Notes: a model not told the origin generated them from the letters alone. Positions 2,169-23,015 are shown, counted from the first letter of the whole stretch. The stretch: 62,950 bases of DNA, filler included, from Sphacelaria rigidula (GCA_964200075.2; 8 parts of 8 records of this genome joined end to end with filler, not necessarily neighbours in it); one strand, 5' to 3'. Numbers and translations are program-made.

Positions 2169-2297
2169 TTAAAACTCGAAGACGCTCGCCGCCCAGCGTC
2201 CTCCGCAGATATCCGTAGAATCACCGGGACACTCAAAGGTGCAGCCTTCGGAGAGGCCATTCTTATCGTATTCCGTAGAAGCATCACCGCACCAGCA
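2169..2297 (-). CDS. WSC gene terminal exon (CWCGDASTEYDKNG...CGGRWAASVFEF*)
   Basis: CAG acceptor, 129 nt, ends in TAA. Confidence 0.9.
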   Translation of the reverse strand, partial: CWCGDASTEYDKNGLSEGCTFECPGDSTDICGGRWAASVFEF

Positions 2298-5200
2298 CTG
2301 CGAGGTAAGAACGGACAGGGCCAAAACGTGCACAGTAATCCAGATGTGACTTGTTGCATGATACTGACGAGTGAAAGGAGGGACAATAACATCAAAGAAC
2401 GCGGGCACGTCGCCAACTCCTCGACTCCCCTACTTTCGCGATAGTGATGTGTTTGAGTGGGCTGCACAGTTGGACGACAGCCAACGTATCACATATGCAC
2501 TCACCTCTGTACCATACTGCGTTCCAAAGAAGGCGTAGCCACTGCATGCCTCCTCGCATAGCTGAAATGTTGGCGGCAATATAATGCGGCAATCGATGGG
2601 CACGGCGTAAATTAGTGGATGACATCAGAAATGGGGGCACGGTACTGCTTTTTTTGGCAAAAATGTATAGATGCAATCACAGGTATCGCGGCGATCACGC
2701 AAATGTGATTTTATTGACCGCAAGCCGGTATCACGAAAAAACAGTCACCGCGCTCTGTGACGTTAGCAAGATGCGAAGGTGACATTGATGCGAACCGAGG
2801 CAGGGACGGACACGAAACACCCGGCATTTGTGTTTTAGTCTTTAGTTACAGTGTACACATTGATTAGAGTGAGGAGCTGCATGGGCCTCCCCCTGCCCGC
2901 TGCAGCCCTCAACGTCATTGGCAATAATAGGTTTACGCTTTGCACCATGCTAGACTTCGGACTGCTAGTACGCTTGTCATTCTGCGCCCTCGCGGACATG
3001 CAGAGACTCTCCGCATTGTATCCGCAGGATGTTTGTATTCACCTCGGTAGTCATGGCCGCGGATTCCACGGCGACCCTTTCAGTGAAAATGCGGTCGTTG
3101 CTCTCGTCCTTGTAGCATCCGAGGTAGGTCGGTCTGATGGGCATCGAGTCGCCGTAGTATACACTAATGGCGTTGCGCCCACCGCAGATATCGCTGTCTT
3201 CGCCGGCACACTTCATTGTGCATGCGCTGGATTCACCGAGACGGTCAAAGTCATCTCCATGGACGCCGCAGAAGCACTGCAAGTCACGCGTTATTAAAGG
3301 ATCGGGACACATGGACAGGGTGTGTTCTATAATACGGTGTCGAGCCCGCATGCAGGAGAACAAGCGGTGGCTGTTGGTGCGGTCAAGCCAAGCTCAGAGA
3401 GGGTGTACACGGTTCTTAACGGAATTCGCTGCTCAATGGACGGGAAAGAGAAAAGGTCGTCATATGCGACACCAGCGCATCCGAGGCCACTGACTCACCG
3501 ACTCGGTTCAGCCTACGATAGGCCGTCTTGAAACGCAACGTGCGAGGACAGTAGGCGCATAGATACATGATGCACTCTAGACTTATTCGCTTGTTATTTA
3601 CCCTCGAAGGAAGAGCAACCTGATCCACCAGTTTTTCCGCAAGCAGGTTCGTGTGCCATTCATCCCAAGGCTCGGCGAGACTGCCGCGTGGCCATGTGAC
3701 GTAGGCGGGTCGAGCCTTCGCAAGCTTTGCTCAAGGCAGTGTGGGTGTCCGACCTCCCAAACCCCCCTGTCAATTTGGCGCAGTGTACGCGTCGCCCTAC
3801 TTATGATCTTTGGGCCTAGGAGAATAACTTGCTTCCCTCCATCTTGCAGCCAGATTCGTTCAAGGTGTAGGGCTGGATGGCAATGTACCAGGTAGTATTT
3901 GTCAATCGAATATATCTACCGCTTATTTTGTGGAGGATGCCTGATGTTTGGTATTTACTATAGACAACAACACTCATGCACCTCCTGTTTATCGAGAACA
4001 AGACGAGTTAGCCCAACTGCGTGCGCTGTCGTTGTCCGTCTTGGAAACAAACTGAAATGGGAAGACGGAACAACTAATCATCAGATGGGTAATACGAGAA
4101 ACACCAGCGAGGTTGCTCACCTCCTTTCCGAATTCTGTTCCGTAGAAGGGAGCACCGCTACAGAATGTCGCGCAGACCTGTATTCGGCGATCACACATAA
4201 ATGGAGAATACATCAACTGATGGAGTGCATGGCTTCGCGGAGGTAATGTGTTAACGAGGATGTTGTAGCAAGCAACTACGAGGCCCGGAGCTGTGTTTTT
4301 CTTACCAGTGGTAATATACGTGGTTGGAGTACGTCGTGCTCTGTACTTGATGACGAACGCCGGTCAGCTGGATTCATAGGCCTGATGTGAGAAGGCTGAA
4401 TGGATATCTTTGGTCATTACAGCTGCTGTCAAACGGACAAAACGTGGGCAGAGGTTGCCTGTGGAATCCCGCGTCACTTCTATTGACCATCGACTTACCA
4501 CCAAGCTCATGGTAGGCTCATTCTTGAGGGATTGCCCGGTGAGCACGCGATCGCTACCGCTATCTACGAAGCACCCTGCGTACCCCGACGGGGGATTGGT
4601 AAACTCGTACACGCTGATAGCGTTTCGTCCGCCACACGTCTCGCTGGCGTCGCCTGAGCAGTCCATGTTGCACGTGGCGTCACCGAGGCGATCGGGGTCG
4701 TCCGATGTCACTCCGCAGAAGCACTGTAGGGTAAAGGCAGGCAAGACAGGAGTTGAACCTGTTGAGAGAGGTGCTACACTAGCGTCCGGAGCATGGAACC
4801 TGGACCATCGGCACCAGATGCATGAGTGGAAAACGAGCATCTCGACTATTCTTGTCGGTTCGAGCCGTGACGATGCCCAAGTACGACAGCATGGGAGAAC
4901 CGAGAACTGGGTGCGTTACATTTTGGGGCTACCGGCGAATCAGCTGAACACCGCTGTACGTGTTACACGCATGTCCGATTCACCGATCGTAATACCTGGA
5001 TCTCGGAATCTTCGCGACGGGTTACGTCACACCATGACACCCAGATTCTGCACGACAAATGATACCTCAGCAGTGCTTACCTCGGTGCCGAACTCCGTCC
5101 CAAAGAACGCATATCCGTCGCAAGCCTCGGCACACGCCTATAGTGATAGTCGCGAGGGGTACCAAGCGCGTCGTGTGAGTGATGGGCGAACGTGAGTGTC

Positions 5201-7360
5201 AGCAAGACGTCTCAACTGGAGTGCCGAGAGTACCAACTCTCGTCCCTAGTTTCCCCTCCCATTGATGACGAGTATGAGGGATTATTCCCGACGACACAAG
5301 GCGGTTAAAGGACAGTATCTCATGGTGAAGAAGCCCGGATTGGTGTGCAGCAATGGTTTTCAAAGTGAGTGCGGCGACACCTATTTCTGAAGGTTTGATA
5401 TTCATAGATCAAACCGCATGCGTTTCCTCACATCTATGGTCAGTTCAGCATCGTTCCCCGATGCTGCTATGGAGAGCACACGGTCAACGACCGAGTCCGC
5501 GAAGCACCCCAGGTAGGTATATTCTTCCTCCTCCGGATCCGAGGCTGGCGCGGGGGTGGGTACGGGCGTGGGCTCAGGGGTTGAATCACCGAAGTACACG
5601 CTGATAGCGCTACGACCACCGCACGTCGTGCTGTCGTCACCGGAGCACGCCATTGTGCAGGCTGTAGATTCGCCGAGACGGTCGAAATCATCACCACTTG
5701 CACCGCAGAAGCACTGTTGAAGCGATTGGTGGCAACCGGGAGGGGAGGAAACATGGGTTGAGTTAGTGCGATCGAGGACATTGAAAGACACAGTATGAAG
5801 CAGCGAACCACACGTTCTCAACCTGAGAGTCCCGGGGTATGTCACTGGGTGTTGCCACGCGAAGCAATCCGTGGATGTGGATGTACGTTTCGCGTCAGGA
5901 TAACATTTTCGAGAGCGCCATTGTGGTCGCCGGGCGCTTCTCGGCGTATTCCATTATGCACACCACATCAAGTGGTTCACCACCTTGCCTTTAGCGATGC
6001 ACGTCGACGCTCAGCACCAGGTTTGTCAGTCTGGTTCTTGAACAGCTATGATGACATAAGCTGCCGTTTTTGGCTATGGTTGCTGTATACGGACATTCAC
6101 ATGTCTGGAGATGGCCATGCTACCGTACGGCTTGCACGTCTGGGCCGAAATCTTCCTCATTCAGGACTTCCAATAGTTAGGAGTCACAAATGATTGTGGG
6201 GTAGGGCATGCCCGTTCTCAATTTCACTCGAGATTTCCCTAGTCTGTTGAAATGCCAACCGTGGCGTGCTCCAACATATGCCATAAGTGTATTTTCAAAT
6301 GGGGTAGAGGTATCCTAAGAAATCAAAGGTCGGAAAATATATCTGTGAACCCCTACCGAAGCACCACTCGAGCCAAAAGCTCTTGGCATCAGCAGGTAGT
6401 TGGCGTGTGAGTAGCCGTGGCTGACAGCAGGCAGGGAAGGGCGCTTGTCACCTATCGTCTCTCACCTCTTTTCCAAACTGGGTTCCGTAGAAGGGAGCAT
6501 TTTTGCACAATTCCGCGCACACCTGTGTGTCCACAGCGAGACAAGCAAGTGTATGAGACGGTGTAGGTCTACATCGGAAGAGAGCGGCCAGCTATATGTG
6601 AGCCCGAGATCAGGACGAGTATTGTCATTATTATTACATAACTTTTGCGCATGGTTTGAGCCAAGGTTGCTATACTCAGTGCCAGACAGTGGGTATCTGC
6701 CTACGTGTACGTTTGTATGCAGCTGCACGCCGTAAGTGCACGGTCTGTGGCACAGTCTTGTGTTGCTATGCAACCTTCTCCTGGGATATGAACCTCAATC
6801 TAGAATATCCATTTGCGATATGACATCAATCTGGGGCATCCACTTCGTATGTGAACCCACGAGATGGACGTCCCAGAGTACCCCCATGTTCCACATAGAC
6901 AGTGATATTCGAGGCAGACGTTTTATGATATCCCACAAAAGGTTGCGTGATATTGAAACGCTCCCCAGCGCCGATGTTTTGGCTGAACGTTTCCATCAAT
7001 GAGTGCACAGTAGAAGGTACACACCGCTGGAGCATTCTTGTGCAGCATGTTTATCTCTCTCGCTTTATACATACGGGTACTGATTTCCCTCACCTCCGCG
7101 GTCATATCGTTGTCCACGAAGGAGCTACCGGTGAGCACACGGTCCGTTACATTGTCCATGAAGCACCCTGCATATCCCGTGTACTCGTACACGCTAATTG
7201 CTAGGCGACCGCCGCAAGTTTCATTTGCATCACCAGAGCAGCTCATGGTGCATGTGGCTTCCCCGAGGCTGTCGAAATCGTCAGACGCTGGCCCGCAGTA
7301 GCACTCTTTGCCAAACTGGGTGCCGAAGTACGCAGATCCCTCACACAGAGTGGCACAGGA
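2169..7360 (-). CDS. Multi-WSC-domain protein gene, 5'-truncated; 9 exons, 454 aa visible, 4 complete plus 1 partial WSC domain
   Basis: Exons 7094-7360, 6466-6522, 5432-5713, 5081-5137, 4499-4723, 4121-4177, 3043-3276, 2505-2561 and 2169-2297 join through GT..AG phase-0 introns into one stop-free frame ending in TAA. The WSC pattern Y-x-GC[FY]-x-D..R / C-x3-C..[FY]GT[QE][FY]G-x-EC[FWY]CG / C-x3-C-x-G..CGG..SV[YF] repeats through it. Confidence 0.93.
2505..2561 (-). CDS. WSC gene 57-nt exon (LCEEACSGYAFFGTQYGTE)
   Basis: CAG acceptor, GTGAG donor. Confidence 0.9.
3043..3276 (-). CDS. WSC gene exon (78 codons, CFCGVHGDDFDRLG...AMTTE)
   Basis: CAG acceptor, GTGAA donor, 234 nt. Confidence 0.92.
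4121..4177 (-). CDS. WSC gene 57-nt exon (VCATFCSGAPFYGTEFGKE)
   Basis: CAG acceptor, GTGAG donor. Confidence 0.9.
4499..4723 (-). CDS. WSC gene exon (75 codons, CFCGVTSDDPDRLG...TMSLV)
   Basis: CAG acceptor, GTAAG donor, 225 nt. Confidence 0.92.
5081..5137 (-). CDS. WSC gene 57-nt exon (ACAEACDGYAFFGTEFGTE)
   Basis: TAG acceptor, GTAAG donor. Confidence 0.9.
5432..5713 (-). CDS. WSC gene exon (94 codons, CFCGASGDDFDRLG...ELTID) with Pro/Thr linker
   Basis: CAG acceptor, GTGAG donor, 282 nt; linker TPEPTPVPTPAPASDPEEEE lies between the two half-domains. Confidence 0.92.
6466..6522 (-). CDS. WSC gene 57-nt exon (VCAELCKNAPFYGTQFGKE)
   Basis: CAG acceptor, GTGAG donor; central WSC motif. 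Confidence 0.9.
7094..7360 (-). CDS. WSC gene exon (89 codons, SCATLCEGSAYFGTQFGKECYCG...DMTAE)
   Basis: AAG acceptor, GTGAG donor, 267 nt; C-terminal part of one WSC domain plus the start of the next. Confidence 0.88.
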
Positions 7361-7680
7361 CTTTGCAGCGTAACAGTACCAGCGGGACGCGCGAGCAACG
7401 CGGACACGCGGCAAATGAGGCGATCAGGAGTATTATGGCCATCGAAAGTGCGTTCTTGGTGACCGAGCAAGGGCACGACGTGGATGTTGTTCCCCAAGAG
7501 TCGTGCAATGGGGGATTGTTCCTCATCATTTCACGTAACTTAATGTTCTCAGCCCCGCATACTTACCCGAGACACCAAGGTTTAGCCCGTTTCAATCCAC
7601 GAGACCAGCGCCTACATCATATTTCAACAAAGACTTTCCACCTCGCGAGCAGACACTCTCTGATTCCTTCAACCTGTGGC

Positions 7681-7782
7681 CGGCACTTTCTACGATAGCC
7701 CCCCCCCCAAAAAAAAGTGCATGAGTTTGGGGGGCAAAATCTTCACGTTAAAAGAAATGGGAAAAGCCGAGCACAACGAGAA
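7681..7782 (-). mobile_element. End of a MITE-A family copy, truncated by the contig end
   Basis: CGGCACTTTCTACGATAGCCCCCC...GGCAAAATCTTCACG is the reverse complement of the right end of the MITE at 13283-13579. Confidence 0.7.
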
Positions 7783-7882
7783 NNNNNNNNNNNNNNNNNN
7801 NNNNNNNNNNNNNNNNNNNNNNNNNNTTAATTAATTAANNNNNNNNNNNNNNNNNNNNNNNNNNNNNNNNNNNNNNNNNNNN
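7783..7882. other. Artificial contig linker
   Basis: N44-TTAATTAATTAA-N44, stops in all six frames. Confidence 0.98.
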
Positions 7883-16565: not shown

Positions 16566-16691
16566 TGCTGGTGCGGAGACGACCCCGACTACGATAGACA
16601 CGGCAGCTCCACCGACTGCGACATGCCATGCGCTGGCGACGCCGAGGACATTTGCGGCGGCTACGACGCCATGAGCGTCTGGGAGTACTAA
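16566..16691 (+). CDS. Terminal exon of a second WSC-domain gene (CWCGDDPDYDRHGSSTDCDMPCAGDAEDICGGYDAMSVWEY*)
   Basis: T-rich tract plus CGCAG acceptor at 16561-16565, 126 nt ending in TAA; same intron position and pattern as exon 2169-2297. Not in the ORF track. Confidence 0.9.
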   Translation, partial: CWCGDDPDYDRHGSSTDCDMPCAGDAEDICGGYDAMSVWEY

Positions 16692-20194: not shown

Positions 20195-21349
20195 TTATTT
20201 CGAACGAAACCGAGTCGGCGCCACACCACGATGACCAGCCTGATAGTCGCTGACCAAACGGAATGTGTCCCTCTTCGACACCGCCATCGCCAGACTCGCC
20301 CACACAGCCTCGATTTTCCTCACCACTAAACCAAACGCCACCAAAGCTGCGATGCATAGAGCAAGCCACACGGTCTTCACTGGATCGCACCGTCTGGGCT
20401 TAGCCTTCATTGACTTTGCCTGGGGCATAAGCTGCACCCTCATGGGCTCAACGCGCGCTGGCGGATCACCACGTAGCGCACGACGAAATGTATCCATGCG
20501 ACGAGCCAAAATATCACGCAGACACCGTGCGCCATCGGCGCTCAGGCCCTTCTGCTCGGCCTGCTGCACGCTATCCTCAAGCGTACGTTCTCTTTCACCT
20601 CTCTCCTCCGCTGGGTCCATTAACATATCGGGCCCCCGATCGACCAAGCACTCCACCGCTTCATCTGCAGGAGCCTCCTCCTCATTGACGCTCTGGAATG
20701 ACCGTATGGATACGATCACACGCCTTGCAGCAAGATAGCTGGGAGTTTCCACGCCGGTTTGGACCGGCACAGCACGCGGACGTAACTTCTCCAACGCCAG
20801 CGGGTACATATCAATCCCGATCTCCTTCATCGTTGCCATCCCAAATAGAACCAGGTTATCCCTACCAAGCATGACAGCGAAAGTAATGGGCTGCAACTCC
20901 ACAGTCCCCCACGGCGTACGCACACCAACGATGATCGGCACCGTTTTATGTGTAACCGTCACGAGAGCACCCGTGGTGGTCGGTGCTGTTTGCGGTCCGT
21001 TTTCGAACGGACTCTGAAGCTGAGCGCCGCCAAACTGCCAAGACATTTGCTCAAGCAACCCCACACTGATCGACGTGATCGCGGACCCAGAATCCGGAAT
21101 AACGCGGGCCATGAACGAATCTACAGAACCAGGCAAGGATGAACCTGCGCGTAAGCATTCAGCCTTGCGATCGACAGGTACCACGCTTGTCGAAGAACCC
21201 TGTTCGGTAGCAAGAGTCATCTGACGCCCGGGCTGCCCTCCAGCGCTTGACATCGATAGCTGCGAATCGTCGGTCCAACCAGACGAAGTCGCCGAATATG
21301 CAGACGGCGCTGTTACAGCAGTCGCAGCCGTAGGAGATGCGCCAGACAC
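20195..21349 (-). pseudogene. Gypsy pol remnant: protease plus RT N-terminus fused to the integrase zinc-binding region
   Basis: 384-aa ORF with a DSG protease motif, ending RLVSDYQ|AGHRGVAPT. Confidence 0.85.
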
Positions 21350-23015
21350 GGATCCTGCCTGGCCGAGGGGTTACGAACTATTCGCTCCAGCACTCCCCAC
21401 CGAAGTATTTGCATTTCCCACGTGCAATGCCCGCCCCGGCACGGACGAATCATAAGAATCCAGAGTCCCCCCACCTGATGACGTAGTGGTAGAAACAGTA
21501 GCGGAGGAATCACCATCCGCCGCCGATTGTTTGCTACCGCGGCCGCCGCGCCCGCGTCCCTGGTTGGCACAGCCCCGTCCACCGTGACGACCGCCCCGAG
21601 ATCCTGACGAATCTCGCGCATTGCCCTGTGCAGCGCCTTGAGCGCGAGGCCTGGGCAGTCCTTGATCATATGTCCGGTGTCGCCGCAGTTGTAACATGCG
21701 CGAGTGGACGACGCTCGCGAAGACGGCTGCTGTTTCTGTTGCTGTTGCTGTTTGCCGCGAGCATTACCTGTACTTGTTGCAGAATCGCGTCGGCTATGTC
21801 CCTCAATGAATTCCCACTGTTCGTCGGCATCAAATACGTATTTTGAACACCACCGTCGGGTTCTTTTTCCAGCCGCCAACATACGTTAGTACACTTCTAA
21901 CATACGCCTTGTATTACGGAGGCGGAATCCCGCCCACCAAAGCTGTGGAAACCGACTCGGCCGGGCCTGGCAACCAACTCCTGTCCTCCGCACGGTACAT
22001 GGCTTGCACCGTCAGGGTTTCTGCGAAAAACGTTTCCATCGATAAGCTGACTATCATCGCACGATCCTTGACAGATTTTCCACCGCTTTCTGGCATAGTA
22101 AGAACTTTGCGTAGATCTGCTGCAGCCTGGGCAGCGTCATGTTTTCCGCTGGTTGTGGTGTACCCGGCATGCTGCTTTACAGCATCTAACAATTCGTCGG
22201 GGGTCACAGCCCGACGGTCCTTGTACATATCTTCGGAGCACCGATGAATGTATGTGGGGATGAGTTATTTTATGCTTACTCTCTCATGCCGCATGAATCC
22301 TGTACTATTGGCTAAAATAGACCTCTCTAGGTAGTCGAGATATGCGGCATGAAACCTTTTTGACGTCTCTTCAGTCCACACTTCGTCATACTTCGGCGTC
22401 TCTAGTGGCTTACCTAACACCAACGGCGCTGCCGCCGCTCGAGCCATATCGACCAGAATTCAACACTTCACTGAGTGACTCTTGCCTGACTTGTGCGTTC
22501 TCCAGCCCACGGAGCGTCCCCCACTGCTGTGCGCTTCAAGTTTGTCTCCTCCTGTCTGCGGACTAAACTAACTCCCAGCTGCAGCCCACTTTCTCCTCAG
22601 CCAAACTCCTCTAACAGAGTGCCGGAAGAATAATATCTAGATATTGTAGACTCTGCCAGACGATCTAGACAAGAGGATTATCAACGAGAGATTCCTCCAG
22701 TCTCACTGGCCTCGTGCTCGACAAGTCTTTTCTTCTCACTTGTCATTATTGCGGAGTGATCCAGAAACAGACCACACCATGGGCCAGACAGCATAGGGCT
22801 ACACAGATAAGGTCCATCAATCCAGGATCTCCTGTCTCCTGCCACTGGTACAATCATGCATGCGATTATACTGACACCTACGGCTTGGTATCATTTGCCT
22901 TCGGTACGTGTGTACACGTGTGTTGTGCGTGACAAGAAAGGAGGGCAGGCGGAGAAAGAGGTGAAGGACACTGTACGACTGATACCTTCACTACCCACTT
23001 GACTGGGTATAACTT

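Follow-up and report, generated by a model that had tools for sequence, protein, structure and literature searches.

Tandem WSC domains and a uniform phase-0 exon pattern in a Sphacelaria rigidula gene: a likely footprint of serial internal duplication

A stretch of 62,950 nt from the brown alga Sphacelaria rigidula (GCA_964200075.2), here called the window, carries on its minus strand (2169–7360) the downstream portion of a gene encoding a tandem array of WSC domains. It is likely that this is the 3′ part of a brown-algal (Sphacelaria-like) gene for a secreted matrix protein with at least five tandem, presumably carbohydrate-binding, eight-cysteine WSC domains and no membrane anchor, and that its regular exon pattern is the footprint of serial internal tandem duplication. 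The window consists of eight unrelated pieces of 7780–7782 nt each, without meaningful shared 21-mers, ordered by length and joined by N44-TTAATTAATTAA-N44 linkers, the first at 7783–7882 and the rest following every 7881–7882 nt. These joints are artificial and no feature is readable across them. The WSC gene lies on the first contig (1–7782), which opens with a poly-G run.

Nine exons of 267, 57, 282, 57, 225, 57, 234, 57, and 129 nt make up the visible gene, their boundaries having been checked by script. All nine lengths are multiples of three and the four small exons are each exactly 57 nt. The eight introns measure 207–844 nt and run from GT to AG with CAG or TAG acceptors. Every one falls between codons, as an earlier note on this DNA had stated in describing them as uniformly phase 0. 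All 16 splice dinucleotides are intact and 454 codons remain open across the nine exons. The array comprises one 5′-truncated and four complete WSC domains, and the same note was right that the complete domains are split alike around an invariant 57-nt exon (4/4). A large exon holds the C-terminal third of one domain (C-part), a linker, and the N-terminal third of the next (N-part), with the 57-nt exon supplying the middle third. The first visible domain departs from this in having its 57-nt module fused to the C-part, the intron at the second of the two positions described below being absent, and its N-part lies off the contig.

Within the domain, the eight introns fall at no more than two homologous positions, of which position a precedes the '.C..{2}C' helix and position b lies between '...G.E' and 'C[FWY]CG'. 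The repeat period is two domains and four exons, an A/B super-unit, and not a single domain. Among the 57-nt modules, exons 2 and 6 (type a) share 75% nucleotide identity and exons 4 and 8 (type b) share 67% nucleotide and 74% amino acid identity, against 54–61% for cross-type pairs. The large exons pair likewise, exon 1 with exon 5 (short linker, 'YAGC' N-part) and exon 3 with exon 7 (one extra C-part residue, 'YLGC' N-part). Native domains are of two kinds, N:A-M:a-C:B and N:B-M:b-C:A, the latter ending alternatively in the terminal C-part. Across five genes, the window gene and four paralogs, all 11 complete domains keep matched N-part, 57-nt, and C-part types.

Read from 5′ to 3′ along the minus strand, exon 1 as far as visible (7094–7360) encodes a b-type module fused to an A-type C-part, a short linker, and an A-type N-part. 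Intron 1 (6523–7093; 571 nt, position a) separates it from exon 2 (6466–6522), a type a module, and intron 2 (5714–6465; 752 nt, position b) leads to exon 3 (5432–5713), which carries a B-type C-part, a Pro/Thr/Glu-rich linker, and a B-type N-part. Intron 3 (5138–5431; 294 nt, position a) is followed by exon 4 (5081–5137), a type b module, and by intron 4 (4724–5080; 357 nt, position b). The cycle then begins again with exon 5 (4499–4723), composed of an A-type C-part, a short linker, and an A-type N-part, intron 5 (4178–4498; 321 nt, position a), and exon 6 (4121–4177), again of type a. Beyond intron 6 (3277–4120; 844 nt, position b) lies exon 7 (3043–3276), with a B-type C-part, linker, and B-type N-part, then intron 7 (2562–3042; 481 nt, position a) and exon 8 (2505–2561), of type b. 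Intron 8 (2298–2504; 207 nt, position b) precedes exon 9 (2169–2297), which encodes a terminal CWCG-type C-part and ends in a TAA stop at 2171–2169.

Similarity between introns, as left by recent duplication or introner-like elements, was not found among the 28 intron pairs, in which the sole blastn match is 16 nt long (E = 0.9). Same-type modules have Nei-Gojobori pS values of 0.51–0.95 against pN values of 0.14–0.18. As synonymous sites are saturated and the introns are without similarity, the duplications are old. Saturated pS with low pN indicates that purifying selection has acted over a long time, and nothing points to homogenisation or turnover of late. The shared phase has to be read in the same light. 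Were the eight introns independent, the chance of uniform phase 0 would be 0.46^8 = 0.002, using a phase-0 frequency of 46% that is the human value (PMC3632108) and not a brown-algal one. Because they are copies at two homologous positions, they count as about two independent events and not eight, and the coincidence becomes about 0.46^2 = 0.2.

The proposed history starts from an ancestral WSC unit that would already have carried two phase-0 introns inside the domain, at positions a and b. A two-domain, four-exon A/B super-unit would then have been duplicated, copying both introns with it, and in-register recombination between homologous repeats would preserve the frame whatever the phase. 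On this account both the uniform phase and the invariant 57-nt exon would be due to common descent from two ancestral introns. The phase-0 uniformity that the earlier note treated as a property of the layout would rather have been inherited. Adjacent homologous exons of one symmetric phase class are also a feature of internally duplicated genes in the model of symmetric-exon module evolution, as presented in PMC3632108. The window gene differs from that model in that its introns lie inside the domain, no exon ever equals a domain, and the movable unit is a circularly permuted exon pair.

The translations of four of the five large exons match the Pfam WSC family (PF01822) at 47.7 (exon 1), 29.7 (exon 3), 28.7 (exon 5), and 31.4 bits (exon 7), each holding only part of a domain. 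The 42-residue translation of exon 9 reaches 25.1 bits, below the gathering score of 27.8 bits. The spliced product contains 39 cysteines in 454 residues, which is five times eight minus one cysteine of the missing N-part and fits eight cysteines per WSC domain. An AlphaFold model of the paralog P0002, not of the window protein, was available with a pLDDT of 86.9 from a 44-sequence alignment. With Foldseek this model matched the Kremen WSC domain (5fws, E = 1.4e-7), yeast Wsc1 (7pz2, TM 0.72, also matched by sequence), and PAN/apple domains. As modelled, the WSC fold is PAN/apple-like. Mapped on the P0002 model, intron position a corresponds to the start of the single helix and position b to the turn that leads into the 'CFCG' strand. 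The 57-nt exon would accordingly span the single helix and the central strand, those of domain 2 in the case of exon 2, which was placed by alignment and structural mapping. Both positions are predicted to cut the fold core, at the helix start and the central hairpin, and none falls at a domain border. This placement suggests that the exons are not classical one-exon-one-domain shuffling modules.

Yeast Wsc1 and the Kremen WSC domain have their fold and cysteine pattern in common with the domains of the window gene. Yeast-type Wsc sensors, however, continue into a Ser/Thr-rich stalk, a transmembrane helix, and a cytoplasmic tail, whereas the window protein lacks all three and ends right after its last WSC domain. 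No stalk or membrane segment follows exon 9, as the protein stops nine residues past the last CGG motif, and the paralog P0008 terminates at the same place. The absence of a C-terminal membrane segment had been pointed out earlier and is borne out here. The product is presumably a secreted extracellular-matrix protein.

The closest named proteins are P0008, P0006, P0002, and P0013, all from S. rigidula. Among 1029 candidates, 97 proteins match at E ≤ 1e-10, most of them with PF01822 only and many with 3–5 WSC domains. P0008 is collinear with exons 5–9, with module identities of 82–94% (84% for exon 8) and tblastn identities of 90%, 74%, and 84% over exons 5, 7, and 9, respectively, the last being the C-terminus. 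Exon 4 is 88% identical to a partial module of P0006. P0008, P0006, and P0002 share the A/B alternation of the window gene and, wherever introns can be seen, their positions as well, yet they are distinct genes. P0006 has the order C3N3-M4-C2N2-M3, which is permuted relative to the window gene and implies one extra super-unit. In P0013 an M1-type module is followed immediately by C3N3-like modules, implying one super-unit fewer. The paralogs differ from the window gene by whole four-exon super-units and keep the alternation.

The two intron positions recur outside the window gene. P0006 and the stop-to-stop open reading frame (ORF) P0010, as translated, carry on into introns, and do so at the a and b boundaries seen here. 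On contig 3, a WSC gene with 52% identity has a terminal exon at 16566–16691 (plus strand) that begins after 'cag' at position b and reads CWCG...SVWEY before a stop; the 800 nt that separate this exon from the contig start yielded no 57-nt exon. A metagenome scan returned a single related locus, L001, a fungal-type and not brown-algal WSC gene. At 4110–4260 and 4570–4640 of that locus, one domain has a phase-0 intron exactly at position b ('...GEE' / 'CFCG'). Two more introns occur there, one of phase 1 within the helix region and one of phase 2 interrupting the CYCG motif of the next domain.

Sequencing runs bear on both the paralogs and the locus itself. Runs X1–X4, from one study, contain the stretch and behave as DNA, with introns evenly covered. 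A search for RNA runs listed none with the gene, and X5–X7, whose RNA nature is a guess, contain almost nothing of it. The public model of P0008 lacks the 57-nt exon and has instead 23 residues of read-through intron, which would break the domain. A 575-nt contig of the P0008 gene from X3 and X4, nevertheless, holds the 57-nt exon together with the intron at position b. On this contig all 10 listed amino acid differences from the window in exon 7 match P0008, and the three changes in the 57-nt exon relative to exon 6 are all synonymous (compared by eye with P0008). As the exon is present and conserved in P0008 DNA, the P0008 model looks like an annotation error. In X3 and X4 the P0008-like contig (~89% nucleotide identity to window 3072–3284 and 4109–4175, with a much shorter intron 6) is as deep as the window version. 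No such contig was reported for X1, though contigs cannot show absence.

Three DNA runs gave contigs over exons and introns alike, none of them differing from the window. Within intron 6, summed depth at 3544–3929 reaches 10,525 in X1 compared with about 65–70 alongside, it is very high in all DNA runs, and many loose ends fall at 3710–3754. These figures point to a high-copy dispersed repeat inside the intron. Direct or inverted repeats were not found within intron 6, and a search of the gene contig against Rfam returned no matches.

The likely function of the array can be approached through Serendipita indica WSC3, a fungal lectin with three WSC domains that is described as binding long, and not short, β-1,3-glucan (PMC7816849). 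Like the window protein, WSC3 is a secreted WSC array without an anchor, and by analogy the array would provide multivalent, avidity-based binding to long cell-wall polysaccharides, which is probably its role. WSC3 is fungal, however, and fungal multi-WSC proteins are only ~30–37% identical to P0002. The window gene also probably has an extra N-terminal part. The array probably tethers this N-terminal module, which would likely be a reprolysin-like metallopeptidase as in P0013 and P0107, to the wall.

The expectation of a protease module comes from the relatives of exon 1. Three longer proteins match it, P0002 (69%, partial), P0013 (68%), and P0107 of Undaria pinnatifida (58%), all brown-algal. 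In P0013 and P0107 the WSC array is preceded by a reprolysin-like region, homologous between the two, and by a Pro/Thr linker, and neither protein ends in a membrane segment. In the partial P0013, a reprolysin-like M12B region (Pfam 38.8–42.4 bits, above cut-offs) is followed by the Pro/Thr linker and the array. P0107 is full length (781 residues), with a signal-like N-terminus, a region 45% identical to and collinear with that of P0013, and three WSC domains, and it lacks an anchor. Of the two proteins, only P0013 scores above threshold for reprolysin Pfam families. Module M1 of the window gene is 84% identical to M1 of P0013, the first module after the reprolysin-like domain. The window gene shares with P0013 and P0107 its module types and order, and its C-terminus is a terminal CWCG-type WSC domain without anchor, as in P0107 and P0008. 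It differs in that any catalytic region is off the contig and in having at least five WSC domains compared with three in Undaria. As the closest relatives of exon 1 have a reprolysin-like domain upstream, the missing 5′ part likely encodes a candidate catalytic module of this kind. The zinc motif of P0013 is of the HExxH type (HEFGH). That of P0107 is HWYGH, also without the downstream His, and this Undaria protein may be a protease homolog devoid of catalytic activity.

Upstream of exon 1, the contig continues for 422 nt (7361–7782). The reading frame upstream of 7360 closes after 21 codons without an in-frame ATG before exon 1. An ATG at 7440–7438, 80 nt upstream of the exon and out of frame with it, opens a hydrophobic signal-like peptide of 33 codons (7341–7440, minus strand), which could have arisen by chance, be a remnant, or point to a frameshift or rearrangement at the 5′ end. 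It was rejected as the start codon, since its frame differs from that of exon 1 and the sole phase-compatible intron would be 17–19 nt. No WSC N-part was found in any frame of 7361–7782, and the N-terminal part of P0013 gave no tblastn match anywhere in the window, the contig ending where it does. The acceptor before exon 1 is AAG, compared with CAG or TAG at the other eight. At the contig end, the bin 7597–7782 has a summed depth of ~400,000 in X1, against about 65–70 alongside, and very high depth in all DNA runs, which points to high-copy, low-complexity sequence.

Several of these observations weigh against a secreted, protease-linked array built by duplication. With the 5′ end missing, no in-frame ATG, an AAG acceptor, and an out-of-frame ATG heading a signal-like peptide, the gene might represent a truncated copy, or else a lectin without a catalytic part. 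Two homologs speak for the protease link, and the best match, P0002, is partial and uninformative, showing no other domain in its 318 visible residues. The A/B and a/b classes were defined on the same five sequences in which matched domains were later counted. The 33 long ORFs scanned on the other contigs of the window yielded no usable multi-exon genes from which to estimate a background of intron phase. The runs searched gave no transcript of the gene, whose expression and constitutive splicing are presumptive. Finally, Logan unitigs break inside exon 6 (4155–4175), inside exon 2 (6463–6489), and in the intron 6 repeat. No single independent contig confirms the whole exon order, which consequently rests on the original assembly, with the collinearity of P0008 backing the 3′ half.

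The alternative that survives best is that the protein is simply a secreted lectin of several WSC domains, comparable to fungal WSC3, in which a catalytic domain is absent and only a signal-peptide exon and the first N-part lie upstream. This is possible, though it is the less favoured architecture. The many WSC-only relatives with 3–5 domains, the visible part of P0002, and the example of WSC3 itself all agree with it, and the signal-like peptide beginning at ATG 7440 would suit such a protein were the ATG not out of frame and the only possible intron not so short. The module nearest to M1, moreover, is the one that follows the reprolysin-like domain of P0013, and the Undaria protein shows the reprolysin-like plus WSC architecture at full length.

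It is unlikely that the locus is a non-functional fragment, truncated at its 5′ end by rearrangement or repeat insertion upstream of exon 1. Such a pseudogene would account for the lack of an in-frame start codon, the atypical AAG acceptor, and the high-copy low-complexity sequence at 7597–7782, and no protein of at least 166 residues with the exon 3 sequence was found in a set of 5.8 billion proteins. Yet the open frame extends over all nine exons, and the 39 expected cysteines and all splice dinucleotides are intact. As introns reach 844 nt in this gene and only 422 nt of contig remain upstream, a missing exon is the simpler reading.

The least probable of the alternatives is the one put forward in the earlier note, that the phase-0 exon modules are used combinatorially, with regulated skipping of exon pairs or frequent allelic gain and loss of pairs producing isoforms of varied WSC number, hybrid domains, and diversified glycan binding. 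The arithmetic it starts from is correct. All exons being multiples of three, any subset stays in frame, and 12 contiguous even-length internal deletions keep the N-M-C order. The skipping junctions it named (7094->5137, 5432->4177, and 7094->4177) have the right donor and acceptor bases and are all in frame. The statement that loss or gain of any exon pair preserves frame and cysteine register therefore stands, but free use of any pair is contradicted by the strict A/B alternation. A single-pair skip (7094->5137) would yield N:A-M:b-C:A, a mismatched combination seen in none of the 11 native domains of the five genes, so hybrid domains of this sort find no counterpart. The four-exon skip 7094->4177 restores a native combination. 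Likewise, diversity by exon shuffling holds in so far as repeat units vary in number and order from one paralog to another, through duplication at the DNA level; against it, the repeats are ancient and under purifying selection and the introns appear to lie inside the fold. The public P0008 model does skip a 57-nt exon, but that exon is present in P0008 DNA with synonymous changes only.

No joints from exon-pair deletions were matched in X1, X3, X4, or X5, although the samples may be of one strain and this is not evidence for or against isoforms or variation in repeat number. The same structure in three DNA samples carries a similar caveat, as they too may represent one strain. X5 yielded no contigs of the gene, with depth in 6 of 30 bins, all of them repeats or a 33-nt conserved motif flanked by other sequence, which says nothing about expression. 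Consensus-like donors, CAG or TAG at all eight verified acceptors, and short introns make constitutive splicing of the exons the most likely case. In a 65-species survey that included Ectocarpus among the non-animals, frame-preserving exon skipping was reported as enriched in animals only (PMC6142364). A bolder proposal, that brown algae use whole four-exon super-units or exon pairs as in-frame cassettes, with regulated skipping tuning the valency and domain composition of wall-binding proteins, is very improbable. If true, it would represent a frame-preserving, proteome-diversifying splicing system outside animals, acting on introns inside a disulfide-rich fold.

Some further features of the window stand apart from the gene model. 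A stop-free frame of 269 codons at 4386–5195 (plus strand) runs antisense to exons 4 and 5 and intron 4, and probably results from the GC-rich coding sequence opposite it. On the other contigs, a Pfam scan of the 33 long ORFs gave one match, a zf-CCHC zinc knuckle (E = 3.4e-7) in an ORF at 21316–21885 (minus strand). It adjoins a 391-residue ORF at 20198–21370 (minus strand) without a Pfam match, and the two may be a gag-like remnant of a retroelement.

A review counts WSC-domain proteins among the cell-wall proteins of brown algae (PMC8307928). The expansion of the family in brown algae, which had been cited as established, agrees with the literature. Two Ectocarpus genomes are reported to encode 320 and 444 WSC proteins, many of them down-regulated at low salinity (bioRxiv 10.1101/307165), and five WSC orthogroups are given as expanded in brown algae (bioRxiv 10.1101/2024.02.19.579948). 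The papers found by searches on WSC proteins in brown algae describe neither the exon structure of WSC genes nor a family that combines protease and WSC domains. The window gene is an ordinary further member of this expanded family, with an instructive, duplication-derived exon structure.

WSC proteins are among the largest extracellular families of brown algae, and this locus offers a well-resolved example of how their arrays grow, by duplication of a two-domain, four-exon super-unit with introns inside the fold. Regulated skipping would be notable if the pattern were so used. As the case of P0008 illustrates, a 57-nt exon is easily missed by automatic annotation; WSC microexons may be missed systematically, and WSC domain counts in brown-algal proteomes may be distorted as a result. 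The locus further provides a testable rule for the family, that only matched triads of N-part, 57-nt module, and C-part are tolerated.

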